The notes beneath the pieces were generated by a model, which did no database searches, was not told where the DNA came from, and saw nothing but the letters and a program-made list of their open reading frames with translations. DNA of 45,070 nucleotides from the IMG/VR virus record IMGVR_UViG_3300037963_003539, positions 1-45,070 of that record; one strand, 5' to 3'. The stretch comes from a virus. Taxonomy: Duplodnaviria > Caudoviricetes. The stretch's first letter is position 1. Each line of letters opens with the position of its first letter. Both the position numbers and the translations under genes were made by a program. Below are positions 888 to 27,343 of the stretch, piece after piece.

Positions 888-1044
888 TTTTCAACATCTC
901 CGCTAGCTTGTTTATATCCATTGTAGGTTCAGGAGTTGGGTCATTAGCACTGTTCGCAGTTCCCTGAGGCACTAATCTGCGCTCATTTACTGGTGTTGTG
1001 CCTACCATACCTGGACCCATTTCTTTCATTTTTCTAGTAGCCAT
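874..1044 (-). CDS. Hypothetical protein, 56 aa
   Basis: MATRKMKEMGPGMVGTTPVNERR...LKNAQN fills the operon gap; GAGG upstream. Confidence 0.55.
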   Translation of the reverse strand: MATRKMKEMGPGMVGTTPVNERRLVPQGTANSANDPTPEPTMDINKLAEMLKNAQN

Positions 1045-1047
1045 AGC

Positions 1048-1440: not shown

Positions 1441-1582
1441 AATCTAATGTAGTATTCTCCATAAGAAATTCAAAAAATTTTCTAAAGTCTTCTTTTGTAA
1501 GAAAGGGTACGTCCTTTCTCATGTGTAGCATTCGATACTCAGTGTATGCTATTTCTAATTGTTCTTCGGTATATAAAATCAT
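1433..1582 (-). CDS. Hypothetical protein, 49 aa
   Basis: MILYTEEQLEIAYTEYR...FRKFFEFLMENTTLDYV; ATGA overlap with the upstream gene. Confidence 0.6.
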   Translation of the reverse strand: MILYTEEQLEIAYTEYRMLHMRKDVPFLTKEDFRKFFEFLMENTTLDYV

Positions 1583-1821
1583 GGGCTAGGCCACTCTATC
1601 TCATCTAATTTTGTATCATCATTATATTTAGCAGGTAAATCCCTAACTTTCTGCCTAAACACTCGGTATTTTTCTTTGTTTTCATCACTTAAAGGACTAT
1701 CTGGTAGTTGTGTCCAATCTGTACTTTGTAATACATCTATACACCACGATCTGATGTAATCCATTACATCTACTACATCATCTAAAGTTTCATTGTCTTT
1801 TAATACAATCTCGTAACCCAT
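1579..1821 (-). CDS. Tail fibre assembly chaperone-like protein
   Basis: L.STDWTQLPDSPLS...YRVFRQKVRDLP...WP motif typical of phage tail assembly chaperones. Confidence 0.8.
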   Translation of the reverse strand: MGYEIVLKDNETLDDVVDVMDYIRSWCIDVLQSTDWTQLPDSPLSDENKEKYRVFRQKVRDLPAKYNDDTKLDEIEWPSP

Positions 1822-2771
1822 TATGTTGTCAGCCCCTGTACTGTATAAATTAAAGCATTATATTGAGGATTGGAAATACCTGTAGTTAAAGCACCTAAAT
1901 CTAATCGATATTTTATTTCTGACCGTAGGTTTGATACAAAACTTACGTACATAGGATTTAATACTACGTCGATGCCACGTCTAAAATTACTTAATTGTAT
2001 CTCACCCTCAGTGGAGTTTAAAAAAGATGAACCAAGCAAGGAGTTGTTGTAATTTTCCATACTTGGAGGAGTAGCACCATGACTATTATTAGAAGGTAAT
2101 ATTGTGCCCACATTATCAGAGTGCAACATAAGCGCAATAGTGTCTGTCCAATAAGGCTCAGTAGCGTTTGACCAGCCTGCAAGAGATGGATTCGCATACG
2201 CAGTCCCAAATCTACGACCAGACACAGTTATTAAATAGGGTTTTTTACCCCCTCTAGTGTGTTTTGCTGTAGTAAAGTCAAAAGTTGCATTTACATATTG
2301 TGAGGTATTAGCATCAAAATTACTGTTTGGCTCTGTACCACGGGTGTGGTTGTTTGGATATATACCACCTTGAGATAAAAAAGTATGATTACTAGCCTGA
2401 CTTAAACCGCTAGGGATACTAACACCTACCCCACTAGCGCTAAAACTGCTTGTTAGAATAATTCCTGTTTTACTAAACTTTTTAGAGGTGTTTTCTTCAC
2501 CTATTTGGTCAGTAATCAATTGGTCTGGTGCAACAAACTTAACAGTAGGATCTCCAGCTGTAATACTAAAATCATTTACCGTATTTGTACTAGACACAAT
2601 ACCACTTTCTTCTAAATCTCTAAGAGTAAGATTACGATCCTTTGGATTACCGGCATCTCCCGCTTTTACCTTTAAATGTGTATCTACTTGTTTAAGATAG
2701 TTTCTTAACTGTGGATCTAAGTTAGTTGGTAAAGGTGGTAAAGAAGGTGGTTTACTGTTAGAGGTAGCCAT
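1821..2771 (-). CDS. Putative tail-associated/structural protein
   Basis: 316 aa, S/T/N/G-rich; lies between the tail hub gene and the fibre chaperone. Confidence 0.55.
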   Translation of the reverse strand: MATSNSKPPSLPPLPTNLDPQLRNYLKQVDTHLKVKAGDAGNPKDRNLTLRDLEESGIVSSTNTVNDFSITAGDPTVKFVAPDQLITDQIGEENTSKKFSKTGIILTSSFSASGVGVSIPSGLSQASNHTFLSQGGIYPNNHTRGTEPNSNFDANTSQYVNATFDFTTAKHTRGGKKPYLITVSGRRFGTAYANPSLAGWSNATEPYWTDTIALMLHSDNVGTILPSNNSHGATPPSMENYNNSLLGSSFLNSTEGEIQLSNFRRGIDVVLNPMYVSFVSNLRSEIKYRLDLGALTTGISNPQYNALIYTVQGLTT

Positions 2772-10894: not shown

Positions 10895-13800
10895 TCAAAT
10901 AAGCGTCCCAAAAACAGGGATATTTTGTTTAACTTCTGCGTCGAATATCAAGTCTTCAATTCTCTCTGCAGTTGGTCCAAGAGCAGGTCCAAGGAAGAAA
11001 TCTCCATATTTTTGTGCTTCATACATAGGTATGAGCAATCCAAGGGGCCCTAGTACACCAGCTCTATCAATTAGTTCACCCATGTAGCTACTCCAATCTA
11101 ATCGGTTGGTTCTAAATTTAGAAGCGTCAAAACCACTTACAGTAAACTTAATAAGTTCTCTTAGCTCTAAACCAAGTGCAGTTAAAGGTAATAGCAACGC
11201 AGCTCCCATAATAGCTGGCATCATGGCAGAAGGTATACCCTCTACACCATAACGCTGTCGCATCGTTCTACCTATACCACCTACTATTACTTTTCCGTAA
11301 GCATAATAGAAAGATTTTAATTGCCAAATAGCAGCGAAGTACGGGTTGTTAGCCCAACCCGGTCTTTCTGCAGCGTTTGGACGTACAATTGATTCATCTA
11401 CAAACTTACCTAACGCACTTCTAACAGCTTGATGTTTTCGACCAATTGTTCCTGTTAATACAAAATCATCGGCTTGCGCTGCCTCTACTTGTTCAGGAGT
11501 AACTCCTAAAGCGTCAAGCTGTTCTGCGTATAACTTGTCGCCTTTTTTAGCGCCCTCTGCTGCTCTAACCATAAACTGCTTACCCATTTGTGCAGCAAAT
11601 ATTCTAGTAAATTGGGTGTAAGCCTCTAATCCAGTAAACCTAAAGAAGTAATCCGTACCTTTTTTAAACATAGGGTTCATGTAATTTTGTTCTGCTGCAT
11701 TGATGTAATACAAACTTAAAGAGTCCGCTGCAATCACACCTAGATCTAAAGCAAACTGTCTAGCTCTTTGTCTACCCTCTTTACCCCCAAAAGCATACTC
11801 TTTAGCAAAATTAATTCCATCAGAAAAACCTTTAAAATCACCACCGTGAATCATTGGCCCAGCTAAATCTGGGAACGAAGCTAGTGGAGCTAGAGTAAGT
11901 AAAGTTACAGCGTTAAAGAATAGTAAGAAACTGTTGGTGTTTCTAAAACCAGCTGACATATCTTGACCTGCTTTACCTAGTTGTCCTCTTACAATATGCC
12001 TTAATTTTGCCTCTAGTTTAGGGTCTACTGCTTCTACTTCTGCTAAATTTGCTTCTAACGCTTTCCAACCTGTAACTACTCCTGCATCTTTTTCTTTTTG
12101 GTTAATTGTTATACCTTTACTTGTTAATATGCTTTTGGCCGCTGGGCTAATAGATCTTACATTAACTACAAAAGACTCATTGTATTGAATTCTTTTTGCC
12201 ATACTATTTAAATACTCTCGCATACCCTCTGACGCATCTTTTAGTAAACCAGCCTCTCTTAAAACTGGACTTGGTATATTTTTAAAGTATCGTTGTCTTT
12301 TTCTGTTACCACCAACTGCAAGGTCGGTAAGATCCCCTTCGTCTTCATCTACCTCATCTAAAGTAGCTTCATCTTCACTTAACAGCCTTTTTACTACTTC
12401 TTTGAAATCTAGTTTAGGATTTTTTTCTACAGCTTCTCGGTTGTATTCATACAAAAGTTCTACTAGTTTTTCTTGTTTACTGGGGTCATTAATTAACTCA
12501 AATATTGCTAGCGCCCTTGGAAAGTATTTTTGATTAAAAGGAATGCCCAAAGGTTCAAGAAAAGCTTTGTGAAAATTTTTAAGGTATAACCTAACTCTAT
12601 GCGCCCTACCTTCCCTACTTGTTGGATTAGCTTTAGCTTTTTCTGCTAGCACATTAACTGGGTTTTTTTCAAAGTCTTCCGCTATTTTAAGAACTTCATT
12701 TATCTCTTCTTTTTCATTTGGTGAAAGATATTTAGTATTGCTTAAATCAAAAATATTTAAAAACTGAGTAAAGAAACTGTTATTTCTTCTTGCATGCGTA
12801 TTTAAATACGCTGGAGTAGAGCCTGCTTTTTCTTTAGAACGAGTGTACATTTGTTGACGTAACATACGTATAACTCTCGCAAGTTTTGGGTGTTTCTTTT
12901 CAAAGTCTTTCATTAAATTATCTGTAGGATAAAGAAGATAACGTAAGCCCCAAATCTCACGAGCTGATTTATTCTTGTAAGTACTTACTATTTTACTTAC
13001 TCCTTGTTTAGTAGCCTGCCCAAGGTTATTAAATATGGTAGCGGCTTCTATCGTACTTTTTCTAGCTTCATAATAAGCTTTTGCCGGTCGTGAAACTTTT
13101 TGTGGAGTTAGATTCTGTTTAAAGATATCTCTTACATTTTGCATGTACTGTTGAAACTCAGGAGGTACTTGTCCAAAACGTTTTTGTGCCTCTGCACCTA
13201 AACTTTTGTAGAACTCTTGTAGTTTTTTAATTATACGGTGAAAGAAACTTTGTACAGCATTTCTTGGTTTTGTACCTTGGATAAAGTTAAACATCTCAGC
13301 TGCAAATTTATCTGCATACCACTCTTCAAAACCGAACTCTGGGTCTTGATATTGAGATACTTCTCCTCTATCTTCTAGGTAAGCTGCATATAGTTTTTCA
13401 AAAATAGGGTTTTTGACTGGAACCAAAGTACCATCGGATTTTTGTATTACAAAGCTCTTGCCTTCGTCTCCTAAACCACCAATTACTTTTTCGCCTTTTT
13501 TAAACACTACTCCAAGTTCTTGCCATAAGAAGGCATGTCCAAACTCGTGCCCTAAATCTTTAAAACGTCTTTCTAAAAGTCTAAGCTGACTTGCATTAGC
13601 ATCTGTTTCACTTTGCAAAGGTGTTTTTTGAATGATAATTACATTAACATTTTCAAAACGTACGATTTTACCAGTAGAGTTTTCATCCTCTAGAAGTTCT
13701 CTTTGTTCTCTTTGGATTTTTTGATTTAATCTTCTATCTGCGTTTATATCATCTTCTATAGAATCTGGGTTACGGTATTTATTAGCATTTTCAGCTAGAG

Positions 13801-16800
13801 TAAAGTTATATGCAGTTTCAGCATCTATGACTATAGTTTTTTGGTTGTAACCTAAATTTTTTGTTACATACCTTGCCATTACATCAATTAAACTTAATCC
13901 GCTTGTTAAACCCTCTTCTCTAAAAAATGATTTAATTCTTTCTGAAGCTCTTACCGTATTAGCTCCTTTTGAAGGTATAAATTGTGCGGGACCTTTTTGC
14001 GCAAACTTAAATCTTTCTAAAGGTACTCTATTACCTTCCATATCTTTTACAGTGGTAGCAGATTCAAACCTTTTATTAACTACTTTAAAATTCCTTTTTG
14101 TAATATCATCTATTTGTTCAACCTCAGGAAGATGTCTAAAAGTTAAACTAATACGTTGTGATTCGGCAGGTCCAACCTCGTGTTTGTAATTGTATTGGAA
14201 ACGCCCTTCAGGCATAACATAAACGCTACCATTACTAGTATTTATTGTTTTAGAGTCTCCAAAGTTCTCTGTTATGGTAACTGCTGCATTCCCACCAAAA
14301 CTTATAGTCGCAATACCCCCTATATCTCCAGTATCTGTCCTAAAAATTGGTTCATCATCTCTATGTGCTGCAATTTTTGCACCTTTTTCATATTTGTTTA
14401 TAAGTACACTATTAAAATACTCAGGAGGATAACCAAACATCTCGGAAAGTTGAGATGCTAAGTCACGCATTTCTTTCGGCATAGCTAGAGCGGGGTGTGA
14501 AGTACCAGTATATGAATATGGAACCCTTCCAAACCAAAGAGCAGTTCTATTCCCCCTAAAGTTTTTAATATTGTTCTTATACTTCTCCATGAAAGCATTC
14601 ATTTTCTTAAGGCTGCTTGACTCAGTAAATACCTGATTTCTGGTATCAATACCATCAATGGTGTCATCAATAGCTATGGTGCCGGCTCTACGTTCTGCTA
14701 ATAATTTTTTAATTCCTATTTCAGGAGAAGGTTTTCTTCGTCGTTGTTTTATTTCTTTCGCTCTGTCAGCCATGGCCTGTTCTTCATCTACAGTTATAGT
14801 AAGGTCGTCTGTAGGTCTGCTATCAATTATGGATGACTCAATTTCTGTGATACCAGACATCCTGCCATAAATATCTAATACAGATGTACCAGGACTATCT
14901 TCGGCTAATTCAATCCCCTCTCCAAAAGCATCTTTACTTCCTAGCACTTCTGGATTTACACCAAACTCAAGCGCTAGGCTACTTAAACTTTCGTATGCTA
15001 CAGCTGAACCCCCTGGTATATTTAATCTTAAAATCCTGCCCGCTAACTGCTCAATGTCTGCTAAATTACTTAAATTTATTGAAAGGTTTTCAGTCTCCGT
15101 CTCTGCTCGTAATTTATCCATAAAGAGTGCACCAAGTTCGCTTACAGTTAGACTAGTCTCGAGTGACCCCGGTAGTACATATTCTTTAGCATTTATATCA
15201 TAGCTTATTGGTGGGTCTTTACGTATTGGTATCATAGTGCTGCTTGGAGCCTCTCCAAAGTTACCTGGTACAAGGTTACCTCGCTGGTCTCTCTGCCCTG
15301 TTCTCTGCCCTGGAACTGTATCTATAACCGACGTCAGGACTCTTTGGGGTGGGCCTACATCATCTCCTCCCACAGGTATATCTAGCGGACGCTGCAAAAA
15401 TCTTCGTGGAAACCCTACGTCTTTGAACGTTGTTCCACCAAAAAATATGTTTCGTTCCTGGTAAGGTCCTTCCACAAAACCTCGTTTTAGTAGTGGGTTA
15501 AAGTTTGCTTCTTTAAAATAATTATTAACATAGTTAAGAGTAATAGTTGGAACCCTAAACTGCGCTCCTTTTTGTATACCCGCTAAAAATTCTAAAATGA
15601 ATATTTTTTCTTGATTTTCTTTTGAAGGTACTATATCTCCTCTGCTAAATTGAAAAGCCTCAAACGGGTCTTCTTGGCCTTTTGAGAATCTTTTTGGTCT
15701 TAATATTTCTCGTAAAATTGGATTTGCCGGCATACCGGGAAGATCTTTAAATGCATATTGATCTTTATTTAATTTAGGTTGTATTAATTTTAATTCGCCA
15801 GGAATACCTTCACGAGTTAATAGTGATAACTCTATATCTGGGTTCATTGGTACAGCAGGAATGGTAGGTACTAAATTGCCATCAACATTTTGAGATTCAG
15901 TAGAGTTCTCTCCTACATTGATTGCTCTATTTGGTATCGATATACTATCTGCCTGTTTAATCCTACCAAGCAACCTTTTAATTGCTACAGCTATGTCTGT
16001 TTCTTCGGGTGGTGCGATCTGATTTAACTCTCTTAAAGTAGAATAAACAGCAGGTTCTCCTTGCTCTTGTCTAAACATATCAAACCAAATTGGTAGATTA
16101 CTTATGTCTTGTGCCGCAGCAGCGGGTCTTCTAGCAGCAACCGTTGTCTCAGCAGCTATTGCCTCAAGAGCAGCTTTAATTTCAGGGTCGTTTCTTAGAA
16201 CTCTTTCTATAACCCTTTCTTGAGTAGTATCAATTTCGTCTAGTTGCTTATCAAGACGTTTTACGGTTTCAACTCTTTTTGTTATATCTTGTATTCTTAA
16301 TGCAGCTTCTTTTTCCTCTTCTAAACGTGTTCTTATTTCCGCTTTTAGTTCTTGCCTTTTATCATTTATAAGCTTAGTTACTGCATCTAAATCAGTTTGT
16401 ATATTGGGTGGTTGTAATCCCGGAGTATCCTCTGTAGGAGTTGTTTGTGTTTGTGCAGTACCTGCAGCGGCTAACTGTTCTGGTGTTGCCGATGGGGGTG
16501 TTCTAGAAAAAATATCCTCTATTTGGTCGTCTGTTAATCTATCTGGGTCAAGACCTAAATCACTAACAATTTGTCTCTCTTGATCTATGGCTTGATAATT
16601 TCGTTCATATTCTAATGCTGCAAAACCACCGTCTTCGCCGGCATTTGGATTTGGAGCATCTTCTGCTATTAATCTTGATAAAAGCTCTTGCGCGGTTTCT
16701 TTGCCTGATGAGTCGAAAGGATTATAAGGTACGCCTTCGCCCCTGTACAATCCGCTTAGTGAATAACCCCTTCGATCAAATTCTTCTGCAAGAAGCTTCC

Positions 16801-19800
16801 AAAAATCATCGTCCAAAACTGCGTCTTTTTCCCTTTTCTGTCTTTGAAATTTTTGATTTTCTGTTTCGTATTTATTGTATTTATCTCCCTTTGCTATATA
16901 AGCTAGACTTGGTCTTCCTCTTTTGTCAAGAAGACCTAAAGACTCTCCTATTTCTCCTACTTCTAACTGAGCATAAGTGAAAGGTTTTATTTTTCTTAAA
17001 ACTTCTTTAGCAGTAGGTCCTAAATCTGGTTCTTCTGGGTATTGTAGGAGAGTGTTTAAAGGTTCAAAGTCTGGGTCAATCGTAATAGCCTCACCAGGAC
17101 GAGTTTGCGGCGTTTGTGTTGGTATTACTTCGATTGATTCTTCATTTAAAATAAAGTAATCATCTTTACCACCGTTCTTTGTAAATTTCTGAAAGGCCTC
17201 TCTATCTGTTCCCCATTTTTCTGCATTTTCATATTTAATATTAACTACATCATAACCTTCCTCTCTTGCTTTATTTAAAGTTGATTCCAGAAGTTCAGCT
17301 GCGAATTCCGCTGGAGAATAGTCTACTACTTTTTTATATGAGTCTAAAGTAAGGACTCGAGCACTATCTTTAATACCTGCTTCAACTCTTGCAAGATCTA
17401 TCCTTACCATAGCATCTTGTTCTCTTACCCATTTTTGAGCATCATAGTCATAGTAGACTGCTTCAATATTTCCTTTCCCTTCTCCGACATACACCGTAGT
17501 AGAAGACCACCTGTCTTCATCCGTAGTAAAATAAACAACATCCTCACCAATTTTATTTGTAGCATCAAAAGGTCTTCGAATATCGTTATCTCTCAACCCA
17601 TGCACTGGAGGTTTAGTAGTATCAAATCCTTCCTCGAGAATTTTTGCAACATTTTCTGGGAGAGTAAAATGTACTATCCTATTAGGGTCAGTTGGTGGTG
17701 TTGTTTCTTGCGTTTGTGTTTTAGCTAAGTCAGTGATGTCAATATAATCATTACCATCTGCAAATTTAGTACCATCTAGTTTTCTAAAAATAATGTGTTG
17801 ACGTACTCCATTTACTTCAAAGCCTTGTAATACGTCTGTTAGCATTGAGTTAAAACCAATAACAAGTGAAGTACCATAGTCTTCAACATTATCTGGGTCT
17901 TGTTCTAAGTATAAACTTCTACCAGCTTTTAATAGTTCATTCATAGCAATGTATCTATTACCTTTAGGTAAAGTTGGCTTGTCTAAACTCATTTCTGCCT
18001 CAGTAAGATTTCTTAGTTGGCCCGTACCTGCAGGCACAATTTCCCACCTAAATCCTTGCTGCCCCTTTGGACTTCCAGTAGGGAATCTTTTATTTTTCTT
18101 AGCTGTGGTTGATCTACCTACATTCGCGTATTTATCAGCGTTGTTAAAACCTCGAATAACTATGTTTAAAGCATTTTCTTGGTCAAATGCACGACTTTCT
18201 GGAGTAGGTTCAACTATTATTCTGTTTTCTACTTGTCCGTCTTCTGCTGTCTGTTGGGTTATATCAAAGTTTTTATCTGGATTTTGTTTTACAAGCCCTA
18301 AAAAGAACGTAGCGAAAGTTTGGTTAATACTATTAGCAATAGCTTGTTTTGCAGGAGTAAGTGGGGCTTTTGCTATATTATCTTTTCCTCCTTCAAGATA
18401 ATCAATAACCTGTTGCTGAGCCCTTTTAATATTGTCTATACTCTCTTGTGTATATGGTTTAACTAGCTGTTTAGTTTTAAATTTTTGCCTAAGCGGATCG
18501 TCTAAAGGTATTAAAGCGCCTAAAGGAATTGGTTTTAAAGAACCAACAGGTTGTGGTTTACTTTTTATTCCTCTTTCTGCATCTGTAGTTTTAGGTCCAC
18601 TTGTACTAGCTAAACGCACTGTGCCTTTTTCATTAGGTCTGCCTTCTACTTCTATAAAACCCCTATCGCTTTCTCTTACTTTGTCAGTTTGTGCAGATTG
18701 TTGTTGAGTCTCATAATCAAGTCCTTCTGCTTGCGTTGTGTCAGGACTATCAGCCTCACGCCCTTCTGCTTGAGCTTGCGCTGTCTCAAAATCATCAGTG
18801 TCAGTATCATCTATGGTACTTTTACGTACTTCTGGTTCTTCCTCTTCCTCTTTCTCATTTACTTTTTCAATAGTAGCTGCAGCCACTCTTTCCTCCATGG
18901 CTGTCTCTGGATCTCTTATTCTTATAAAATATTTCTCGTCAGATCTAGGTTTTGCTTTACTCTCAGTATTAAAAATCTCGTCATAATTTCTAAGACCTCT
19001 GCCTTTAAGTCTAAATAATAAGTTTGCCGCTTCTACAGCTTTTGCTCGTTTAGCTGGAGTAGAGTCCATAGTCTGTTGCCAAACTACTTCTCCTTTTCTA
19101 TTTACAACTTCTAAAAGTAAGTCGTGGTTTTGGTTTCTTGCTTCAGAATAACCTAAAACAGAAGCTAGAGTTTTTTCAAACCGATCATAATTTCTACCAG
19201 TTGCCGCTCCTTTAAATTTAGCTATTCTATTTACTTTTGAAGGCTCACTACTATAAAAAGTACCTTGGCCTGGTAGTACTACACTTTGTAATTTTGAGTC
19301 TGTTACTTTTTGACTAAAAGTTTTAGGTATAACTGGTTGCTCTAGGGAAAATTCTTGTTGCCCTGTTTCTTCTTCCGTAGGTTTTTTAGTAGTTGCATTT
19401 CTTCTTTTTTGGTATGCAATTGCATTTAAATCTCTTTGGATGATAGCTAGTGCCTGTGCTTTATTTAAATCTTTCGTACTAGTTTTAAGCTCTATTTGCT
19501 TTTTCTTTAAACGTGTTTCAAGCTCTTTCAATAGAGCGGGACTCATCTGGCCTACCGCCTCTCCTCTGTTAAAAATATATTGAAGGGCATACTCTGGGCT
19601 ATTTACGTTTTCAAGCATAGCGCTAGGCCCTTCCCCCATAATAACTTCTTTACCACTCTCATCTATTACTTTTACATTTCCAGTCTGTGGTGACACAGCA
19701 GTAACGGTAGCTTTGTAAGGTTTACCAGTTGCATCAAATACATCTATTTGATCTCCAGCTTTTACGTTAGGGGGTATTTCAAATTTAGCAGGTTGTTGAT

Positions 19801-21763
19801 CTGGACTAGGCGCAGCTTCTTCTGTAGGTTGTTTTGGAGCTGTATCAAGACGTTCTTGGTCTTCTTCTCTTACCCACAACGAATCTTTTTTATTGTCTGT
19901 ATCTAAAACAGTATCTAATTGTGCGTTAAGTGATTCGTCTGATTCAGGTTTAAAATTAAATAAACCCCCTAAACGTGACTCTTGTTCTTCGCTTCTAGCA
20001 CGATAATCAAAACTATTATCAAGAGCATTTCTAGCTTGATTAAAAATACTTGTTACTGCAGCACCTGGAACTGCTCGAGCTCCACCACCTGCGAAAGCCC
20101 CTAAGAAAGCAGCCTCTGCTATTCTTAGTTTTGCATCCGCCGCATCATAATCTTCATCAATGGCAAATCTTTGTGCAACTGCTAACCCCTCTTGTAGAGT
20201 TTCTGCCGTACCTTCTGATACCGTACTAATACCAACTAGAGTAGCCATGTCTCTAGCAAAATTAGAGAAATAATTTGTATCTTTTTGTGCTGCTTGTAAT
20301 TTACCAAGCTCTGAATTAGTTAAAGCCTTTTGACCGCCTTTTTGATATTTTTGGTAGATGGTATAAAGGCCTTTGTTTACACCCTTAAGAGAATCAGGAT
20401 TTTTCTCTCCTTGTTCAACTATTTTACCTAAACGTGTTTTACGCAAAGCCATACTGTATAAAGACTTAGCAAAGAAAACTTCTGCCGCAGTTCCAATAAT
20501 AGCTTGTGGTAAACCTAAACCAAGAGCCGCAAACGCTTCGGGTTTACCCAACTCTCTTCCTGCTTCTCTATATTCTTGTAAAGATTGTGATGTCCCTACT
20601 TTATACTCTTGCAAAAAAGCACCAGTTATAGACCCACCTTTTACCAAACGGTTACCTAACGTCCAAGCCTCCTCCAAAACTACTCTTTCTTCAGGAGATA
20701 AAGCTCTTAAGCCCGCAGCGCCTCCTCCGGCCATTCTGTATTTCTTTATGGCATCTTTTAACAGCTGCTTAGTTGCCGCTTTACCACCACGTTTTAAACT
20801 TTCTTTTAATATAAAGCCTACTCCACCACCTGCTATTGCACTGGTAATAGTTTCTAGAGCTTGGGGTAGTATTTTACCTATCCCACCAAACACCTGTTCA
20901 ATTCCACCAGCAAAAGTAGGGTTATCATAAAACTCTTTAAAAGGAGTTAGTTCTTGGAAATACTCTGCTGCCTGCCTTTCATAAAAATCAGCTGTCGCTA
21001 AATTAGCTACTGCAGCTTCATCTCTTCCAAGGGCAATATTAAAAGCGGCCTTCATGCTATTCCAATCAGCCCCTGTTTGCTCTATCCCTCCTGCAAACCC
21101 ATACGTAAATTTATCAATTAAGCCTTCCGGTTTGGGTTTTCTTTCTGGAAAAGGTTGAGGTGTTACAAAAGTCGAAGTCCGCATGGCAGCTGCGTCGGGG
21201 TAAAGGAATACACCAGTTAAGTCTGTACCGGCTGAAGCTATTCTTGTGTCTGGTTCCGGTTCAATAGGTGGTAATACGGTAGGTCCTTCAAGACCTTTTA
21301 TAGAATCTGCAAATAGTTCTGCTCTGTTTATGTCTTTACCTGACTCTTGTAAATACCAGTTAGAGTCTATTGCTTCTTTTGCTGCAGAGTCAAAGTCTCT
21401 ACTCTTTAAGGCAGCCCAAGTTTTTTCTAAGGCATTAGGGTTTACGTCTTTATTCCACCAGTTCTCTCCTAATTGAAAATTAGTATGGGTTAATCTCTCT
21501 ATAAACCTTTCGTCATCGGTGCCATAACCAAGCTCTTGTGCTTGACTTAATGCTGCTTCATAAGCTTTTGTCGCATCAGCCTCAAACCATTGTGTAAGAT
21601 CTCCAGGGCGAATTCTATCTCCAGCTTGATATTGATTTAATTCAGCACCGGTTAATTTATGTCCTACACCTGCAGTCAGGTTCCCTAGCTTATCAGTGTA
21701 AACATAATCTTTACTGCCTTCTTCGGTAAGAAGTGAATTTAAGATATATTGAGGTACCTGCAC
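10895..21763 (-). CDS. Giant (3622 aa) internal virion/ejection 'polyvalent' protein: lysozyme + ART-like + AlkB + zincin domains
   Basis: Position after the ejection-protein genes. N-terminal E-x8-D-x5-T (EGSKDYVYTDKLGNLT) T4-lysozyme triad; HFT...VYFT...GYD ART-like motif; N.Y...HRD...H...RISLTFR AlkB motif; HEFGH...EEWYAD zincin; helical/hydrophobic C-terminus. Confidence 0.9.
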   Translation of the reverse strand: MQVPQYILNSLLTEEGSKDYVYTDKLGNLTAGVGHKLTGAELNQYQAGDRIRPGDLTQWFEADATKAYEAALSQAQELGYGTDDERFIERLTHTNFQLGENWWNKDVNPNALEKTWAALKSRDFDSAAKEAIDSNWYLQESGKDINRAELFADSIKGLEGPTVLPPIEPEPDTRIASAGTDLTGVFLYPDAAAMRTSTFVTPQPFPERKPKPEGLIDKFTYGFAGGIEQTGADWNSMKAAFNIALGRDEAAVANLATADFYERQAAEYFQELTPFKEFYDNPTFAGGIEQVFGGIGKILPQALETITSAIAGGGVGFILKESLKRGGKAATKQLLKDAIKKYRMAGGGAAGLRALSPEERVVLEEAWTLGNRLVKGGSITGAFLQEYKVGTSQSLQEYREAGRELGKPEAFAALGLGLPQAIIGTAAEVFFAKSLYSMALRKTRLGKIVEQGEKNPDSLKGVNKGLYTIYQKYQKGGQKALTNSELGKLQAAQKDTNYFSNFARDMATLVGISTVSEGTAETLQEGLAVAQRFAIDEDYDAADAKLRIAEAAFLGAFAGGGARAVPGAAVTSIFNQARNALDNSFDYRARSEEQESRLGGLFNFKPESDESLNAQLDTVLDTDNKKDSLWVREEDQERLDTAPKQPTEEAAPSPDQQPAKFEIPPNVKAGDQIDVFDATGKPYKATVTAVSPQTGNVKVIDESGKEVIMGEGPSAMLENVNSPEYALQYIFNRGEAVGQMSPALLKELETRLKKKQIELKTSTKDLNKAQALAIIQRDLNAIAYQKRRNATTKKPTEEETGQQEFSLEQPVIPKTFSQKVTDSKLQSVVLPGQGTFYSSEPSKVNRIAKFKGAATGRNYDRFEKTLASVLGYSEARNQNHDLLLEVVNRKGEVVWQQTMDSTPAKRAKAVEAANLLFRLKGRGLRNYDEIFNTESKAKPRSDEKYFIRIRDPETAMEERVAAATIEKVNEKEEEEEPEVRKSTIDDTDTDDFETAQAQAEGREADSPDTTQAEGLDYETQQQSAQTDKVRESDRGFIEVEGRPNEKGTVRLASTSGPKTTDAERGIKSKPQPVGSLKPIPLGALIPLDDPLRQKFKTKQLVKPYTQESIDNIKRAQQQVIDYLEGGKDNIAKAPLTPAKQAIANSINQTFATFFLGLVKQNPDKNFDITQQTAEDGQVENRIIVEPTPESRAFDQENALNIVIRGFNNADKYANVGRSTTAKKNKRFPTGSPKGQQGFRWEIVPAGTGQLRNLTEAEMSLDKPTLPKGNRYIAMNELLKAGRSLYLEQDPDNVEDYGTSLVIGFNSMLTDVLQGFEVNGVRQHIIFRKLDGTKFADGNDYIDITDLAKTQTQETTPPTDPNRIVHFTLPENVAKILEEGFDTTKPPVHGLRDNDIRRPFDATNKIGEDVVYFTTDEDRWSSTTVYVGEGKGNIEAVYYDYDAQKWVREQDAMVRIDLARVEAGIKDSARVLTLDSYKKVVDYSPAEFAAELLESTLNKAREEGYDVVNIKYENAEKWGTDREAFQKFTKNGGKDDYFILNEESIEVIPTQTPQTRPGEAITIDPDFEPLNTLLQYPEEPDLGPTAKEVLRKIKPFTYAQLEVGEIGESLGLLDKRGRPSLAYIAKGDKYNKYETENQKFQRQKREKDAVLDDDFWKLLAEEFDRRGYSLSGLYRGEGVPYNPFDSSGKETAQELLSRLIAEDAPNPNAGEDGGFAALEYERNYQAIDQERQIVSDLGLDPDRLTDDQIEDIFSRTPPSATPEQLAAAGTAQTQTTPTEDTPGLQPPNIQTDLDAVTKLINDKRQELKAEIRTRLEEEKEAALRIQDITKRVETVKRLDKQLDEIDTTQERVIERVLRNDPEIKAALEAIAAETTVAARRPAAAAQDISNLPIWFDMFRQEQGEPAVYSTLRELNQIAPPEETDIAVAIKRLLGRIKQADSISIPNRAINVGENSTESQNVDGNLVPTIPAVPMNPDIELSLLTREGIPGELKLIQPKLNKDQYAFKDLPGMPANPILREILRPKRFSKGQEDPFEAFQFSRGDIVPSKENQEKIFILEFLAGIQKGAQFRVPTITLNYVNNYFKEANFNPLLKRGFVEGPYQERNIFFGGTTFKDVGFPRRFLQRPLDIPVGGDDVGPPQRVLTSVIDTVPGQRTGQRDQRGNLVPGNFGEAPSSTMIPIRKDPPISYDINAKEYVLPGSLETSLTVSELGALFMDKLRAETETENLSINLSNLADIEQLAGRILRLNIPGGSAVAYESLSSLALEFGVNPEVLGSKDAFGEGIELAEDSPGTSVLDIYGRMSGITEIESSIIDSRPTDDLTITVDEEQAMADRAKEIKQRRRKPSPEIGIKKLLAERRAGTIAIDDTIDGIDTRNQVFTESSSLKKMNAFMEKYKNNIKNFRGNRTALWFGRVPYSYTGTSHPALAMPKEMRDLASQLSEMFGYPPEYFNSVLINKYEKGAKIAAHRDDEPIFRTDTGDIGGIATISFGGNAAVTITENFGDSKTINTSNGSVYVMPEGRFQYNYKHEVGPAESQRISLTFRHLPEVEQIDDITKRNFKVVNKRFESATTVKDMEGNRVPLERFKFAQKGPAQFIPSKGANTVRASERIKSFFREEGLTSGLSLIDVMARYVTKNLGYNQKTIVIDAETAYNFTLAENANKYRNPDSIEDDINADRRLNQKIQREQRELLEDENSTGKIVRFENVNVIIIQKTPLQSETDANASQLRLLERRFKDLGHEFGHAFLWQELGVVFKKGEKVIGGLGDEGKSFVIQKSDGTLVPVKNPIFEKLYAAYLEDRGEVSQYQDPEFGFEEWYADKFAAEMFNFIQGTKPRNAVQSFFHRIIKKLQEFYKSLGAEAQKRFGQVPPEFQQYMQNVRDIFKQNLTPQKVSRPAKAYYEARKSTIEAATIFNNLGQATKQGVSKIVSTYKNKSAREIWGLRYLLYPTDNLMKDFEKKHPKLARVIRMLRQQMYTRSKEKAGSTPAYLNTHARRNNSFFTQFLNIFDLSNTKYLSPNEKEEINEVLKIAEDFEKNPVNVLAEKAKANPTSREGRAHRVRLYLKNFHKAFLEPLGIPFNQKYFPRALAIFELINDPSKQEKLVELLYEYNREAVEKNPKLDFKEVVKRLLSEDEATLDEVDEDEGDLTDLAVGGNRKRQRYFKNIPSPVLREAGLLKDASEGMREYLNSMAKRIQYNESFVVNVRSISPAAKSILTSKGITINQKEKDAGVVTGWKALEANLAEVEAVDPKLEAKLRHIVRGQLGKAGQDMSAGFRNTNSFLLFFNAVTLLTLAPLASFPDLAGPMIHGGDFKGFSDGINFAKEYAFGGKEGRQRARQFALDLGVIAADSLSLYYINAAEQNYMNPMFKKGTDYFFRFTGLEAYTQFTRIFAAQMGKQFMVRAAEGAKKGDKLYAEQLDALGVTPEQVEAAQADDFVLTGTIGRKHQAVRSALGKFVDESIVRPNAAERPGWANNPYFAAIWQLKSFYYAYGKVIVGGIGRTMRQRYGVEGIPSAMMPAIMGAALLLPLTALGLELRELIKFTVSGFDASKFRTNRLDWSSYMGELIDRAGVLGPLGLLIPMYEAQKYGDFFLGPALGPTAERIEDLIFDAEVKQNIPVFGTLI

Positions 21764-21775: not shown

Positions 21776-24274
21776 CTATAAGTTATTTTTGTTTAGTATT
21801 GCAGAAACCGCGGCTTGTTCTTTAAAGGCTTTCATTAAATTTGGATCCTGTACATCTTCATAAGAAATGGATGCTACAGAACTTCCACCCGCTGGGTCTA
21901 AAATTATAAATCTCTGGGCGTCGGGGTCGTCACGTAATCTAGACATCGTTTCCATGAAAGCTTGCGGAGTTTCGTCGTAATTAGAGACAAATGGAATTTT
22001 TTCTATTAGGTCTCTCCACCAAGATTTATCAGCCAATTGTTTAATTTTCATTTGAATTAGTTTAGCTTGGCCCTCTTTATATCTCTGGACAGAGAGTTTA
22101 AATCCTTCATTCTGTATAATTCTTGCATCTGTTGTTCCGTTTTCTACTCCTCGTAGCATTGAAAGTATCATAGCATTAGCAGTACCTAGGTTAGCTACCC
22201 CTTCGTTAAGCATATTATTTCTTTCTGTCGTACTAAACTTAGGATCATCAATCTTAGTAAAGTCTAAGTTGCCTAAAGCGCTATCTAAAGTATTTGAAAG
22301 AACGCTAATACCTGATGTGTCTACAGGTGGTGCGCTAACTTGTTCTGGTGCGATAAAAGTGCCATAAGTAAGAAAATTTGTAACATTATCTGAAGTCATA
22401 AAGGTATTATACATTTTACTATTTGGGTCCATCGTTCCATATATTCGTAACATAGCCCCATATCTAGCTACAGGAGAGGCTTGCCCAAGGTTACCATTAG
22501 CCATAGCCGGTATATTAAACAGTTCTTCGAGTTTAGCTTGGTCCTTATCATTTACTTCAATAGCTTGGTTTATTAACGTTCTAATGCTGTCTATGGATTC
22601 GCCATTCTCTATAGCTTTTTTTATTTTAGGGAAATACGTTAAACTCTCCTTACTCAAAGAGGCACGTATTGCGCTGTCGTCTGTTGAAGATACTGCTGCT
22701 CCAAATAAATCGGTTTTGCTATTATTAAGAGCAAACTCATAAGGGTCATTTAGATATTCTTGTAACTTCTCGGGGTTAGCAGCACTTAACCTATCTATCA
22801 ATTCTTTGTGCTCTTTACCAGAATAAAATTCATTTACTGTTTTTATGTTGTTTCTTCTATCTTCAGTGCTTATACCGTCCTCTGGGCCAGCTCTTCTTTC
22901 TTCTCTTATACGAGTGTCTATATCGTTTGTAACACCTCTGACCACATCTTTTAAAAGCCCCTCTCTGTAATTATCTGATTCTCTACGAAGCTTCTGTTGC
23001 TCCTCTATACTAAAAAAGCCTAATTGTGTATCACTTATGCCATAAATAGAGCCTTTTGGATAAATTTTTAAATCTCTTGTGGTTACATTTCCGGGAGGAG
23101 AATAGGCAGGTAAACTATACTCTCCTGTTAGACCAGCCTGAGGGACTACATATCCCCTAGCTTTATCACCTGAAGCTTTAAATTGTTTTATTGCCTCTAA
23201 AACTTCTTCTTTAGTATCGGCTGTTGCAACTCTTTCTTTTAAACCAAACAAGTTATCTGTTTCTGTAAGAGTTAAACCATCTCCGCCAGTAAACGCTTGC
23301 TCTTGATCTTCTTGTTCAGTTGCGGTTATTATTTTATTTAGTGCGTCTAGTTTTGTTCGTCTGTCAGTAGTTTCGGAACTAATTTTGTCAAACTCAGCTT
23401 TATACTGATCAAACGCTTGCTCAGTTAAACCCACCATTGCCCCTATTTGACCACCATTAGGCATTTTATTTACTAAATCTGTATAAAGCGCTTTGTAAGC
23501 GGTGTCTAAATATTTATTTATAGGAATATCTTGACCAGCAAAATCTTTTGTTACTCCCCCTAAAAATTCTTGATCTGATGCTATTTCAGAATCGGTCATG
23601 TCAGCTAAATTAGTGCCGTCTGAAGTAAGGTCAGCAGAGTAAAAAAATTGACCGCCGTCTTTGTTTCGACCGACTGATCTGACTAAAGGATTAATAATCG
23701 CGTATCTCCCGTTTTGATTTATACCATATTGAGAGCCAATCCAATCTATTTTTTTACCTTTCCCAAAAAGTTTATAGTCATAACCTAAACTGTTTTGTAA
23801 TAAACTTGCATTATATCTACCATTACTTTCATCCCCTAACGCTTTACCTAAAGTTACAGCAGTGCTCGGTGTTAGTTTAAAAAGATCAGTATCATCTACT
23901 TCAAGCTCGTTCTTAAATTTATCGAAAGCCTCTTCATCTCTAAACGCGGACTGGTCTGGTAAGTCTTCCCACTCTGTATTTTTAAATGTTCTTGCGTCTC
24001 CTAAAATTTGTGTTTGGATATCAAGAATATTACCTAGTTGGTTAGATCGTCCTCTATCTATGCCTTCTTGATTAGTTGCACCAATATCGAAACCAAAAAA
24101 TTGTTTCCATCTATCACCTGGCGTCTTCCTTCTGTATTCTACTTGCGATTGGCCAAAAGGGTTATTACTAGCTAAACCGCTACCTCCACTACCTCCACTA
24201 CCCTCACCTGGAGTAAATGGGTTAAAGGGAGTACTCCCAAAAGTGCTATCAAAAGTATCTTTTTCTGTCGCCAT
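21776..24274 (-). CDS. Internal virion (ejection) protein, 832 aa
   Basis: Large helical protein directly upstream of the giant protein; synteny with podovirus ejectosome genes. Confidence 0.65.
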   Translation of the reverse strand: MATEKDTFDSTFGSTPFNPFTPGEGSGGSGGSGLASNNPFGQSQVEYRRKTPGDRWKQFFGFDIGATNQEGIDRGRSNQLGNILDIQTQILGDARTFKNTEWEDLPDQSAFRDEEAFDKFKNELEVDDTDLFKLTPSTAVTLGKALGDESNGRYNASLLQNSLGYDYKLFGKGKKIDWIGSQYGINQNGRYAIINPLVRSVGRNKDGGQFFYSADLTSDGTNLADMTDSEIASDQEFLGGVTKDFAGQDIPINKYLDTAYKALYTDLVNKMPNGGQIGAMVGLTEQAFDQYKAEFDKISSETTDRRTKLDALNKIITATEQEDQEQAFTGGDGLTLTETDNLFGLKERVATADTKEEVLEAIKQFKASGDKARGYVVPQAGLTGEYSLPAYSPPGNVTTRDLKIYPKGSIYGISDTQLGFFSIEEQQKLRRESDNYREGLLKDVVRGVTNDIDTRIREERRAGPEDGISTEDRRNNIKTVNEFYSGKEHKELIDRLSAANPEKLQEYLNDPYEFALNNSKTDLFGAAVSSTDDSAIRASLSKESLTYFPKIKKAIENGESIDSIRTLINQAIEVNDKDQAKLEELFNIPAMANGNLGQASPVARYGAMLRIYGTMDPNSKMYNTFMTSDNVTNFLTYGTFIAPEQVSAPPVDTSGISVLSNTLDSALGNLDFTKIDDPKFSTTERNNMLNEGVANLGTANAMILSMLRGVENGTTDARIIQNEGFKLSVQRYKEGQAKLIQMKIKQLADKSWWRDLIEKIPFVSNYDETPQAFMETMSRLRDDPDAQRFIILDPAGGSSVASISYEDVQDPNLMKAFKEQAAVSAILNKNNL

Positions 24275-24286: not shown

Positions 24287-24970
24287 CTATGCAAACAGGA
24301 TTGCCGCCATAGCTGCTGTAGCTAATACGCTACCACCAATCTGTCTATTTTGTGCTGCATGTTGTGCCCTTGCTTGAGTAAAGGCATTCTGTCTACTTAC
24401 ATCATTTGCAGCAGCAGTACCCAACCCAGTTAAAGAGCTCCTGTTAACCCCTTGCCCAATATTTATTAAATTAGCTAAGGTTCTATTATTTGCATCTAAC
24501 TGTGCTAGTCGAGCGTTATTTAAACCGCCTGTCAGTGCTAAAGCTTCGCCTCTTTGGCTAGCTGCTTCTCTACCTTGTCTTAAAGCAGCAGTTTCTGACA
24601 TGCCTAACCTTTCTCTATTACGTCTAGCAACGTCTTCTGCAATTTGTGTTTGCTGCGCTACATCTTCTGGCACAGCATCTACAAGACTTGTGTCTTTTCT
24701 ATTTCGTAACATCTCTTCTTCAAAAGGACGAAAATCATTTATATATCTACCATATTGCCTTATTGCAACATCAGCGTAATCAAAATCTGGGTTAGCAGAA
24801 GGGGAAAGTCCTAACTTACTCCTTTCGTTTTTTAAATAGCCTTGTTGTCCTTCTTTAGTAGTTGTGTCAAAAGCAGTCTTAACCGGAGGTGGAGTAAAAC
24901 CATAGAAAGTTCCTCCCGTTTCGCCACCAATGTTCATGGTATTTAAAAAACTGTAGTCTAAAGCCGCCAT
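24287..24970 (-). CDS. Internal virion (ejection) protein
   Basis: A/Q/R-rich helical protein with hydrophobic C-terminus; synteny. Confidence 0.6.
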   Translation of the reverse strand: MAALDYSFLNTMNIGGETGGTFYGFTPPPVKTAFDTTTKEGQQGYLKNERSKLGLSPSANPDFDYADVAIRQYGRYINDFRPFEEEMLRNRKDTSLVDAVPEDVAQQTQIAEDVARRNRERLGMSETAALRQGREAASQRGEALALTGGLNNARLAQLDANNRTLANLINIGQGVNRSSLTGLGTAAANDVSRQNAFTQARAQHAAQNRQIGGSVLATAAMAAILFA

Positions 24971-24993
24971 ATTATTACACCATACCTCTCATA

Positions 24994-25551
24994 TTAAGTA
25001 ACTGCCAAAGAACGATAAGGGTTCGTCTTATCGTCTGCTAGTACTTGTCTCATTTTTGTTTTAGCTGCGGTGAGACCTATGTTTGCTAGCGCAGCTTTGT
25101 TTGCTCTTCTTACTGTTTGTTTCTCTGCAGCTCTTGCGAGTGTTTCAGATCTTTCTAATTTAGAGGCCTGTGCTAAAGCGCTACCGGCATCTGCTGCTTG
25201 TCCACGAGCAATACCTAATACATTTAAACCCTCTTGGTCTTTTACACCTTTTGCTGTGACGTTTGCAGAAAGCATTTGTCCAATAGCTCCAGAGGCCATG
25301 TTTGCAGCATTGTCTACCGCGCTAGTAACTCCGGGAGCAAGAGGTTGCCCAGTTAAAGCCTGCATAGTATCAGCTTGAGCTCTGCCACGTAGAGTTTGTT
25401 GTCTGTTAGAGCTACGAGCTTCATCTCTCATTTCCCTTAATAACGGGTCATAAGTGCTTTCAAAGTAATCCTGATCAGCTTTTGCTATAGCAGATTGAAT
25501 TTTTTCAGTTTCACCTGGTTGGTAATCTGCCTGTTTTGGACCACTGCCCAT
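24994..25551 (-). CDS. Internal virion (ejection) protein
   Basis: Ala/Gly/Gln-rich, MGSGPK N-terminus; follows the GNAT-like gene as in P22/T7-like layouts. Confidence 0.6.
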   Translation of the reverse strand: MGSGPKQADYQPGETEKIQSAIAKADQDYFESTYDPLLREMRDEARSSNRQQTLRGRAQADTMQALTGQPLAPGVTSAVDNAANMASGAIGQMLSANVTAKGVKDQEGLNVLGIARGQAADAGSALAQASKLERSETLARAAEKQTVRRANKAALANIGLTAAKTKMRQVLADDKTNPYRSLAVT

Positions 25552-25553
25552 AT

Positions 25554-25997
25554 TTATACCTCTTTTTTATAAACTGTAGTTATTGCTTTAAATCCATGCT
25601 TTTCAGCCGCCCTACTCCATCCAGGTCGGTCGGAATGAAACTCCATTCCTGTTATGCTAGTGTTTTGTATTAGACCTTCTAAAAACTCTACACCAGCGCT
25701 TATTATATTATACCCGGGTCTGCTGTATGCAACCCAAATAAATAAAGTTTTCTCTCCTCCAGCATCATCTAAAACTGACACTATAACAAAACCTGCATAG
25801 TAGTTATCCTCATACACCATGTATAACTCAGAACTGCCTTTTCGCAATGCTGCATATACATCGGCGGGTATCCAATCCGCGTATGACTTTTGAGCTACTT
25901 TTTTAAGGTCCGGTTCTATTGTGTTGTAAGCAACTTTAACATCCTCTAAAGGAATGTACTCAAAGACCTTACCATTAATAGTCCAACTCTTTGCCAT
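25554..25997 (-). CDS. GNAT-fold virion assembly protein (T7 gp13-like position)
   Basis: LFIWVAYS...MEFHSDRPGWSR..EKHGF motif; start re-assigned to MAKSWT. Confidence 0.6.
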   Translation of the reverse strand: MAKSWTINGKVFEYIPLEDVKVAYNTIEPDLKKVAQKSYADWIPADVYAALRKGSSELYMVYEDNYYAGFVIVSVLDDAGGEKTLFIWVAYSRPGYNIISAGVEFLEGLIQNTSITGMEFHSDRPGWSRAAEKHGFKAITTVYKKEV

Positions 25998-26658
25998 ATC
26001 GTCCATACCTCTTCCTTGGGGATAAACCTGCACTTTTATATTTAACTGTTCTTTTTACACCAATGTTTCCGCCTCTACCTCTCAACTCCGCATCATTTAT
26101 TTGGTTTTGAAATAGATTAAAATAATCAGCTGAGGCTTGTGGATTAGTCCACTCTTTACCCGGTATTCTTAATAATCTGTAAATAGCACCGTATATAATC
26201 CCGTCTCGATAATCATTACTAAAATTAGTATCTATACTATTAGTAGTCCTAGTAGGTTTTAAGGCTACGTTCAAGAGCAACCCATTTACAGTTTTTGTAT
26301 TCGGGACTGGCACCAACCAAAAGGTATCGGGTGTCTTTTGTAAGTACACAGCGGGTACTCCAGACTTATCTCGCCAATCTGGGTAATTTAATTCTAAACT
26401 TCTTGGACTAATAGGGTCTAAATCATCCCCGTCATAAGTAGCCCACAATATTTGGTGTACATCTGTACCACTGGGTTGATCAAACTCATACTCATATGTG
26501 CCTGATATTGTAGTTATTGGGTCTAGGTCATAGGTAAAAGCTTTACTTTTTTCACAAAGCTCTATGGTTGCAGAACGTAAGTTATTTCTAATTAAAGAAT
26601 CTGGACAACCCGGAACATATGGCAATACATCTTTTATTAAACTTTCAAAACTAGCCAT
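25975..26658 (-). CDS. Head-tail adaptor-like protein
   Basis: VLPYVPGCPD.L...AT.ELC, G.P..Y, LVPVP, ALKP motifs; after the capsid gene. Confidence 0.7.
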   Translation of the reverse strand: MASFESLIKDVLPYVPGCPDSLIRNNLRSATIELCEKSKAFTYDLDPITTISGTYEYEFDQPSGTDVHQILWATYDGDDLDPISPRSLELNYPDWRDKSGVPAVYLQKTPDTFWLVPVPNTKTVNGLLLNVALKPTRTTNSIDTNFSNDYRDGIIYGAIYRLLRIPGKEWTNPQASADYFNLFQNQINDAELRGRGGNIGVKRTVKYKSAGLSPRKRYGRYGKELDY

Positions 26659-27343
26659 TATTTCTCATCGCCTCCGCTTGCGGTGCATTTGATTCTTGTT
26701 GAGCAAAACCAGTACCTAAACTCATCTGAAAAGCGTTAAAGTAAGCGGTAGCTTTTTGTAAACCACCACCAGCTTCTGCATCTTTTAAATAAGCTTTGTA
26801 CGTTACAAAATCCATAAGGGCATTTGCAAAAATATCATCTACTTGTATTAAGTCAGTATTAGACCCAATACTAGTAGGGTTTTTAGAATATACTACCTCT
26901 ATATAAGCACTACCAGATACTCCAGGGTAAACATAAAATTTCCTAGGGTCTCTAGGATCAAACATAAAATGCTTAACTACTGTACCATGAGCTGCATCAC
27001 CCGTAGCTGTAGGGTCATGCCAATCAGGGTCTACACTATTTATAGCTTCAAATTCAGTTCTACGTATAACTTTACCACCCGTTGCATCACTAGCAGTACC
27101 AGACATATTTCGCACAATATTTAATAAACGTAAGCCATCGGAAGGTATTGTTTGTTCAGTGCCAGTTGCTAATAGCACATTTGCGTGTGTAGCAGTAGAA
27201 TCTGGGCGAAAATTAGCAATCTCCCTTTGGGCATCACTTAAATAATCAAATAGTTCCCCGTCGGTCCAACGCACACCAGTATTATCCTGAAGTGTATTAC
27301 GCACCCTGGATAATATGTGTTGTGCTTGTAACGTACCAGCCAT
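26651..27343 (-). CDS. Head-tail adaptor-like protein (DUF6682-like)
   Basis: LQD..GVRWT..EL.DYL.DAQREI...RPD, FYVYP, AL.D.V.Y.AY.KDAE motifs. Confidence 0.75.
   Translation of the reverse strand: MAGTLQAQHILSRVRNTLQDNTGVRWTDGELFDYLSDAQREIANFRPDSTATHANVLLATGTEQTIPSDGLRLLNIVRNMSGTASDATGGKVIRRTEFEAINSVDPDWHDPTATGDAAHGTVVKHFMFDPRDPRKFYVYPGVSGSAYIEVVYSKNPTSIGSNTDLIQVDDIFANALMDFVTYKAYLKDAEAGGGLQKATAYFNAFQMSLGTGFAQQESNAPQAEAMRNNG

Follow-up and report, generated by a model that had tools for sequence, protein, structure and literature searches.

Gene order and the large cysteine-free protein

The window, meaning the whole stretch of 45,070 bases analysed here, is a linear virus record (IMG/VR IMGVR_UViG_3300037963_003539, Caudoviricetes) estimated to be 77% complete. 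According to its open reading frame (ORF) list, the minus strand holds a single ORF of 3622 residues (10895-21763), as a preliminary description made from the letters alone had reported, with a GTG start preceded by a purine-rich stretch that resembles a ribosome-binding site. All features below lie on this strand unless stated otherwise. The gene order starts with the terminase, continues with a P22-like portal, the capsid and a pair of SU10-type adaptors, and leads to ORFs of 159, 185, 227, 832 and 3622 residues; past the 3622-residue ORF lie tail genes, among them a tail fibre with an S74 chaperone, as well as the lysis genes, a holin and an M15 endolysin. The large protein is the final and largest product of a small-medium-large ejection operon (185/227, 832 and 3622 residues) and occupies the position of T7 gp16 and of the N4 virion RNA polymerase (vRNAP). 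Judged by position, the 832-residue ORF (21776-24274) is likely a gp15-like periplasmic tunnel protein, and the Gly/Ala-rich 227- and 185-residue ORFs (24287-25551) are likely small ejection proteins; family scans gave nothing above weak noise for the former and a weak PHROG 8003 match for the 227-residue ORF. The adaptors are tandem paralogs (25975-27343; PF24175, E values of 2e-13 and 2.5e-31), and the portal is nearest to that of the Pseudomonas podophage KPP25 and its relatives (37% identity). Sequencing runs with at least half of the gene's words were marine metagenomes, with no RNA dataset among the runs listed as containing these words. A single-sequence query with the C-terminus found no relatives in GTDB genome contigs, and therefore neither a prophage nor a host was found.

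The 3622-residue protein contains no cysteine, compared with 53 cysteines in the 7166 residues of the 25 other ORFs of the window (P of about 2e-12). The same was seen throughout a family set comprising the window protein and 83 relatives (n = 84; 2014 to 3762 residues; selected by a match to the C-terminus), all of which are cysteine free, and in 66 of the 69 complete ORFs from IMG/VR loci, a set of 79 loci examined out of 380 found that overlaps with the 84 proteins. The 185-, 227- and 832-residue neighbours likewise lack cysteine, as does the gene upstream of the large protein (595 to 1028 residues) in 17 of 18 hand-picked loci. Cysteine suppression has been described for the ejection proteins of Schitoviridae and attributed to passage through the periplasm (PMC11445570).

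The conserved C-terminal scaffold (residues 2886-3622; 10898-13108), with hydrophobic segments near residues 3276 and 3506, matches virion structural and internal virion families, namely PHROG 342 ("internal virion protein with endolysin domain," E = 1.8e-9), PHROG 30152, and KPP25 ORF088, labelled "virion structural protein." The gene product likely acts as the large ejection protein in a marine podophage of the KPP25 type, its packaging and ejection being suggested by the absence of cysteine, the gene order, and a layout resembling T7 gp16 and N4 vRNAP; on these grounds the preliminary claim of an ejection protein stands, by inference. Two observations weigh against this assignment: several short non-ejection ORFs of the window also lack cysteine, and a profile search with the C-terminal alignment against solved structures gave no PDB sequence match, so that homology with T7 gp16 is judged from the PHROG match and the layout. 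The missing structural match, together with database labels that read "virion structural protein" and no more, would also fit an external tail or tape-measure-like structural protein, or one made during infection and not ejected. However, the complete absence of cysteine, the gp14/15/16-like gene order, the internal-virion PHROG matches at both ends of the protein, and the separate tail fibre gene with its S74 chaperone downstream make a non-ejected protein very improbable. In Roseobacter phage CRP-810 (L019:7704-16245, gp35 and gp34), the C-terminal scaffold is a separate gene of 839 residues that comes after a 2016-residue cysteine-free protein with two HExxH motifs, and in another locus (L050:9296-11146) the C-terminal ORF has just 617 residues.

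Scaffold and enzyme domains

The protein begins with a T4-type lysozyme (residues 1-157; 21293-21763), an optional N-terminal muramidase. Residues 7-154 match PHROG 2083 ("internal virion lysozyme motif," E = 4.4e-10), and a Glu-x8-Asp-x5-Thr triad is present as E15, D24 and T30, so that the lysozyme triad of the preliminary description is borne out; the spacing is that of the T4 lysozyme triad. The match to PF00959 is below the cut-off in the window protein (E = 0.0057) and above it in 5 of the 28 relatives scanned, and relatives bear several other kinds of N-terminal muramidase. A conserved Gly/Ala-rich N-terminal scaffold follows (residues 210-638; 19850-21136), found in 73 of the 84 proteins by single-sequence search and in 75 by profile, with a hydrophobic helix near residue 411. 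The hydrophobic peaks of the protein begin at residues 411, 3276 and 3506, which agrees with the Gly/Ala-rich hydrophobic segments described before. By analogy with transmembrane helix (TMH) I of T7 gp16 and the N-terminal domain of N4 vRNAP, the Gly/Ala region likely inserts in the inner membrane. A second scaffold segment (residues 814-1356; 17696-19324) has its first ~190 residues in 53 of the 84 proteins, the remainder being lineage specific. Family scans of residues 170-600 and 800-1350 gave nothing beyond weak noise.

Residues 1358-1553 (17105-17692) hold a domain with a predicted ADP-ribosyltransferase (ART) fold, with H1365, Y1411 and D1535 as its triad. A profile built from six sequences recovered 77 representatives, and the AlphaFold model from a 40-sequence alignment reached a pLDDT of 89.5 (just 32 from the single sequence). 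The best VIA-align match of this model was the RES protein MbcT (Z of 8.0, root mean square deviation [rmsd] of 3.7, 120 aligned), and 46 of the 50 rows listed were ART-superfamily proteins, judged from their titles. Foldseek against viral models gave four matches at E ≤0.001, with several ART-PolyVal entries ranked lower and a Roseobacter vRNAP among the fold matches. As seen in the 40 aligned members, the His is kept in 39, the Tyr in 38 and the Asp in 29, each on a predicted strand (His on strand 1, Tyr on strand 2, Asp on strand 5), and an H-Y-D pattern has been described for the ARTs of polyvalent proteins (PMC5512222). Overall, these results support an ART fold of H-Y-D type, and the earlier suggestion of an ART-like domain holds. 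On the other side stand modest fold scores, since Foldseek against the PDB gave no match at E ≤0.001 (PARP4, E = 3.8e-3; exotoxin A, E = 8.6e-3), and the position of D1535 is Gln in 10 of the 40 members. MbcT as best match, at a modest score, is compatible with a transferase as well as with an NADase. The window's own domain had no Pfam match in family scans, its alignment profiles gave weak unrelated matches alone among PDB sequences, and the family members did not reach the cut-offs of Pfam ART-PolyVal (PF18760; 1 of 40 at E = 0.41) or Tox-ART-HYD1 (PF15633; 3 of 40, best E = 0.014). The domain would, on balance, spend NAD+ to ADP-ribosylate a host protein; an NADase or phosphorylase is a less likely role, and action on a nucleic acid target appears doubtful.

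The ART family extends beyond the ejection family, as one of the 79 carriers examined has the ejection family's C-terminus and the others are otherwise unrelated large proteins. The 62 carriers of at least 1000 residues contain 37 cysteines in 139,558 residues, and 45 of them are cysteine free; LPD38 was found in 8 of 17 carriers scanned. A solved chain of the cyanophage A4 pre-ejectosome (PDB 9k3a_B) aligns with the ART model over its residues 1419-1608 (Z of 5.2, rmsd of 4.5, 115 aligned) and may hold an unannotated ART-fold domain; the term "ADP-ribosyl" has no occurrence in the available main text on that complex (PMC12002296). In one ART relative, P0110, Trp occupies several sites where relatives have Gly, as expected for TGA-coded Gly read as Trp, and its source genome is possibly recoded.

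The next enzyme is an AlkB-family dioxygenase dependent on 2-oxoglutarate and Fe(II) (residues 2385-2545; 14129-14611), found in one clade. Residues 2404-2543 match PF13532 well above the cut-off (E = 6.2e-12; 46.6 versus 31.2 bits), and H2467, D2469, H2528, R2537 and R2543, which fit the HxD...H and RxxxxxR ligand pattern, are intact in all 12 AlkB copies found among 163 sequences, confirming the AlkB domain proposed before. The closest solved relative is ALKBH3 (E = 4.7e-6). Scores against the NCBIfam AlkB equivalogs fell far under their cut-offs (30.2 versus 267 and 23.8 versus 231 bits), and therefore the domain is no ortholog of the Escherichia coli type. A search of proteins of 292 to 2000 residues found no AlkB domain of this kind, which is weak evidence, and tblastn over 50,697 phage records found it in one unannotated record. 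The enzyme would probably demethylate alkylated bases of the entering DNA, and a less probable role is the stripping of marks that host defence reads. Between the ART-fold and AlkB domains lie an optional segment (residues 1560-1770; 16454-17086), present in 6 of the 84 proteins and in 6 of 163 when viral loci are included, and a lineage-specific region with internal indels (residues 1770-2380; 14624-16456).

A zincin-like scaffold domain (residues 2690-2885; 13109-13696) lies before the C-terminal scaffold. Its HExxH motif at residues 2739-2743 (13535-13549) is the sole one in the protein and is joined by E2814, which bears out the HExxH motif with a downstream Glu described before. The region was found in 71 of the 84 proteins by single-sequence search and in 78 by profile. 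Among the 78 aligned relatives, E2814 is conserved in 71 and HExxH is intact in 68, with KExGN in seven and HExGE in three. A DUF4344 metallopeptidase match was seen in 2 of the 28 relatives scanned and LPD23, as a lead, in 18% of one cluster. Locus L007 contains, a short way upstream of its zincin region, a tandem duplication that is degenerate and repeats every ~290 bp (L007:12460-12944).

The preliminary description had suggested release of the enzymes by zincin self-cleavage, that is, a self-processing polyprotein in which the zincin cuts the linkers after ejection and frees lysozyme, ART and AlkB. Such processing would be in line with the intact motif in most relatives and with the Pro/Thr/Gln-rich linkers beside the cassettes, and autoproteolysis by MPTase domains has been proposed, with the processing of phage P1 DdrB cited (PMC5512222). 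However, HExxH is also intact in 38 relatives shorter than 2300 residues. In addition, a tree of the C-terminus, covering 75 of the 84 proteins (P0076-P0084 were excluded as too distant), places the 10 proteins with lost zincin ligands in a single clade (support of 1.0), and therefore the loss occurred once. The members of this clade are longer (median of 2880 versus 2265 residues), and 5 of the 10 have SLOG or NADAR matches. An intact zincin in short relatives and a dead one in a cargo-bearing clade thus uncouple cargo from protease. N4 vRNAP, moreover, is packaged unprocessed, its zincin region being needed for encapsidation (PMC5512222), and its C1 is contiguous with C2 in the structure (PMC13434306). 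These results weaken the suggestion of self-cleavage, which we regard as unlikely. The zincin is part of the conserved scaffold and not cargo, and self-cleavage looks unnecessary; most likely, by analogy with C1 of N4 vRNAP, it serves as a scaffold element and not as a release protease. Against this, its strong conservation argues for a selected function, therefore implying some role, and is compatible with cleavage.

Slots and cassette exchange among relatives

Single-sequence searches of the 84 proteins found the C-terminus in all 84, the lysozyme in 12, AlkB in 11, the ART-fold domain in 6 and the slot 1 module in 3. The N-terminal Gly/Ala region, the zincin and the helical C-terminus make up a fixed scaffold, and the enzymes are optional, sitting as cassettes in defined slots. 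Comparison of domain content among homologues thus revealed a variable toolkit with enzymes swapped between lineages, which the preliminary description had missed.

Slot 1 holds in the window a beta-rich and helical module (residues 645-795; 19379-19831) and is empty or replaced in close relatives. At residue ~645 the window has the candidate "SH3-like" module, P0005 has another segment, and P0010 has nothing. The module (residues ~660-710) is mobile, and in family scans it gave just a sub-threshold PUA_4 match (E = 0.0016). In slot 2, at residue 1356, P0007 has no insert, P0001, P0003 and P0004 have the ART-fold domain, and P0005 has a cpYpsA SLOG domain; these variants sit between near-identical flanks in relatives that are 82 to 94% identical. 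In a sister clade, the site that follows the N-terminal scaffold and corresponds to slot 1 carries the ART-fold domain in P0014 and P0017 and another segment in P0015, and is empty in P0016. Pro/Thr/Gln-rich linkers border the cassettes. Two candidate relatives were dropped: the match in L005 lay in a helicase-like ORF that is unrelated, and that in L017 spanned 28 residues only, in a cysteine-containing ORF.

Across a 602-bp block (17119-17720), the window and locus L007, the source of P0017, have ART DNA of 97.7% identity, compared with 31% (N-terminal) and 45% (C-terminal) protein identity between their scaffolds. The ART cassette was exchanged recently, and in frame, between lineages. It includes a Thr/Gln linker native to the window clade, where the linker occurs even with the slot empty, and for this reason transfer from the window clade to the sister clade appears the likelier direction. 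Other blocks shared across clades are the slot 1 module (73% identity), cpYpsA (55 to 64% identity) and an N-terminal muramidase. P0049 (residues 2104-2262) and P0058 (residues 1416-1574) share a 160-residue cassette that is 82% identical, compared with 57% for their C-termini, and no family match for it was seen in the scans. Further domains of relatives are YAcAr, cpYpsA, NADAR, LysM and a weak DUF4326. No convincing recombination-site repeat was found in the window gene or in L007; an 11-bp repeat lies at both ends of the ART cassette and may be due to chance.

An assembly chimera was excluded by contigs from other runs, which cover the ART cassette with both flanks and the AlkB-zincin stretch. 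Contig X3 covers 16960-18207 without a difference from the window, as well as 12597-15630, and contig X9 covers 16888-17786 with 12 differences; in locus L006, the protein is 99.9% identical to the window protein across 3404 residues. In public runs, joints that skip 17100-17689 and 16442-17712 and that replace 19366-19816 agree with slots 1 and 2. Three points weigh against the overall reading proposed below: these joints were mapped at 85% likeness and may stem from other organisms or related phages, most NADAR matches are under the Pfam cut-off, and family scans of residues 1560-2380 gave nothing beyond weak noise.

Since every cassette is absent from some close relatives and 38 of the 68 zincin-intact family proteins are shorter than 2300 residues, the inserted domains might also be passengers tolerated in flexible scaffold linkers, of no benefit at infection. 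This is improbable given that the AlkB ligands are intact in 12 of 12 copies and the ART His and Tyr in 39 and 38 of 40, that the cassettes are as cysteine free as the scaffold, that the same few NAD-related folds recur in distant clades, and that the ART cassette spread recently (97.7% DNA identity).

Elsewhere in the window, a 676-residue ORF past the holin (2771-4801) matches PHROG 511 ("internal virion protein," E = 1.6e-118); it has four cysteines and lies outside the ejection cassette, so that the PHROG label or its role is doubtful. An early-region operon on the plus strand (41317-44514) encodes a MoxR-like AAA ATPase, ORFs of 256 and 88 residues and a DUF2201 metallopeptidase-VWA protein, and an Endonuclease VII-like gene lies immediately upstream of the small terminase (34661-35164, minus strand).

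Relation to known systems and proposed mechanism

Polyvalent proteins (PMC5512222) are likewise large proteins of the virion locus with unrelated enzymes, an H-Y-D ART and a lysozyme; they also have a zincin-like MPTase, of which the HExxH domain described here is a candidate counterpart, and the occurrence of ART, MPTase and lysozyme in them is already known. Of the features that define them, at least two unrelated enzyme domains are found here in one chain (lysozyme, ART fold and AlkB, with the zincin motif), and the gene lies in the virion locus of a phage with portal and terminase. In contrast, the scaffold can here be identified as an ejection protein whose slots are defined, scans of the window protein for LPD and MPTase-PolyVal gave nothing above the cut-off, and the available main text of PMC5512222 makes no mention of AlkB, 2OG, dioxygenase, SLOG, YpsA or NADAR, although its supplements may list AlkB or SLOG. 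The protein thus appears, from its domains, to work as polyvalent proteins do, with a scaffold of the gp16/vRNAP type as its base.

The vRNAPs of N4 and other Schitoviridae (N4 gp50, DEV gp71) are also ~3500 residues long, cysteine free and encoded by the last ejection-operon gene (PMC11445570), and they share an N-terminal domain with membrane helices, an enzyme in the middle, an HExxH-bearing C1 and a large helical C2 (PMC13434306). The middle of the window protein consists instead of variable small cassettes, and no RNA polymerase match came up when the protein, entire and in segments, was scanned against Pfam, PHROGs and NCBIfam; the likeness seen is one of layout. T7 gp16 has an N-terminal muramidase (residues 1-156), TMH I, a cytoplasmic part and TMH II (PMC8954989), and the gp14/15/16-like gene order is shared. 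The gp16-like proteins, in which muramidase swapping is known (PMC8954989), have 609 to 1337 residues and a transglycosylase; the window protein has 3622 residues and a T4-type lysozyme and adds the zincin and the enzyme cassettes, without a PDB sequence match. Closest are KPP25 ORF088 and phiA008 gene 66 (Kochitakasuvirus-like), which are homologous at the C-terminus (profile E values of 1e-87 and 1e-102) and are likewise cysteine free, with one HExxH and a similar gene order. The phiA008 protein has ~2050 residues, and just 1825 residues of the KPP25 protein lay within the locus examined; tblastn searches with AlkB, ART and lysozyme matched neither phage. T4 Alt is also a head-packaged, injected ADP-ribosyltransferase (PMC5512222); it is a separate protein of the R-S-E clade, whereas the domain described here is of H-Y-D type and fused into an ejection scaffold.

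Virion-packaged NAD-ADPr enzymes have been proposed earlier, viral SLOG and NADAR domains are typically standalone, and ARTs are encoded by only 3% of podoviruses (PMC9503650), while phage AlkB is mentioned as sporadic, without fusion, in the available text of PMC7824862. In the literature covered, with subscription journals mostly outside that coverage, AlkB as ejection cargo, SLOG or NADAR fused into such a scaffold, and swapping at the level of slots were not found.

We consider it probable, largely by analogy, that this KPP25-like ejection protein is a fixed cysteine-free scaffold whose exchangeable enzyme cassettes are threaded into the host cytoplasm before the DNA. The protein would be packed in the head and exit unfolded through the tail together with its 185-, 227- and 832-residue neighbours. 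The lysozyme would open the peptidoglycan in the periplasm, and the Gly/Ala region and C-terminal hydrophobic helices would become embedded in the inner membrane in the manner of T7 gp16, with residues ~640-3250 on the cytoplasmic side. There, the cassettes would refold and act tethered beside the entering DNA, the ART modifying a host protein or draining NAD+ and AlkB removing methyl lesions or marks from the incoming genome. Delivery of muralytic, NAD-using and AlkB domains before phage gene expression, as the preliminary description had proposed, is therefore retained as likely, by inference. The cassette pool, comprising ART, cpYpsA and YAcAr SLOG, and NADAR, has NAD+/ADP-ribose as its common theme, suggesting a role in early counter-defence. 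More tentatively, the scaffold may represent a slot-based delivery chassis across a large marine podophage family, in which single ART, SLOG, NADAR and AlkB domains move in frame and give a kit for counter-defence and repair ahead of transcription.

Polyvalent proteins, which were defined computationally as bags of domains, are now tied to a specific ejection scaffold with the cultured members KPP25 and phiA008. Alleles in which one and the same slot is empty, filled by the ART or filled by SLOG form a natural comparison set. Three questions thereby become accessible to tests, namely whether vRNAP-like and polyvalent proteins use their zincin to cut anything, whether counter-defence enzymes directed at NAD are injected by podophages, and how AlkB serves a DNA genome on its entry. 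If true, the chassis reading would mean that a DNA phage delivers AlkB with its virion and would provide a natural carrier for passing chosen enzymes through the Gram-negative envelope.

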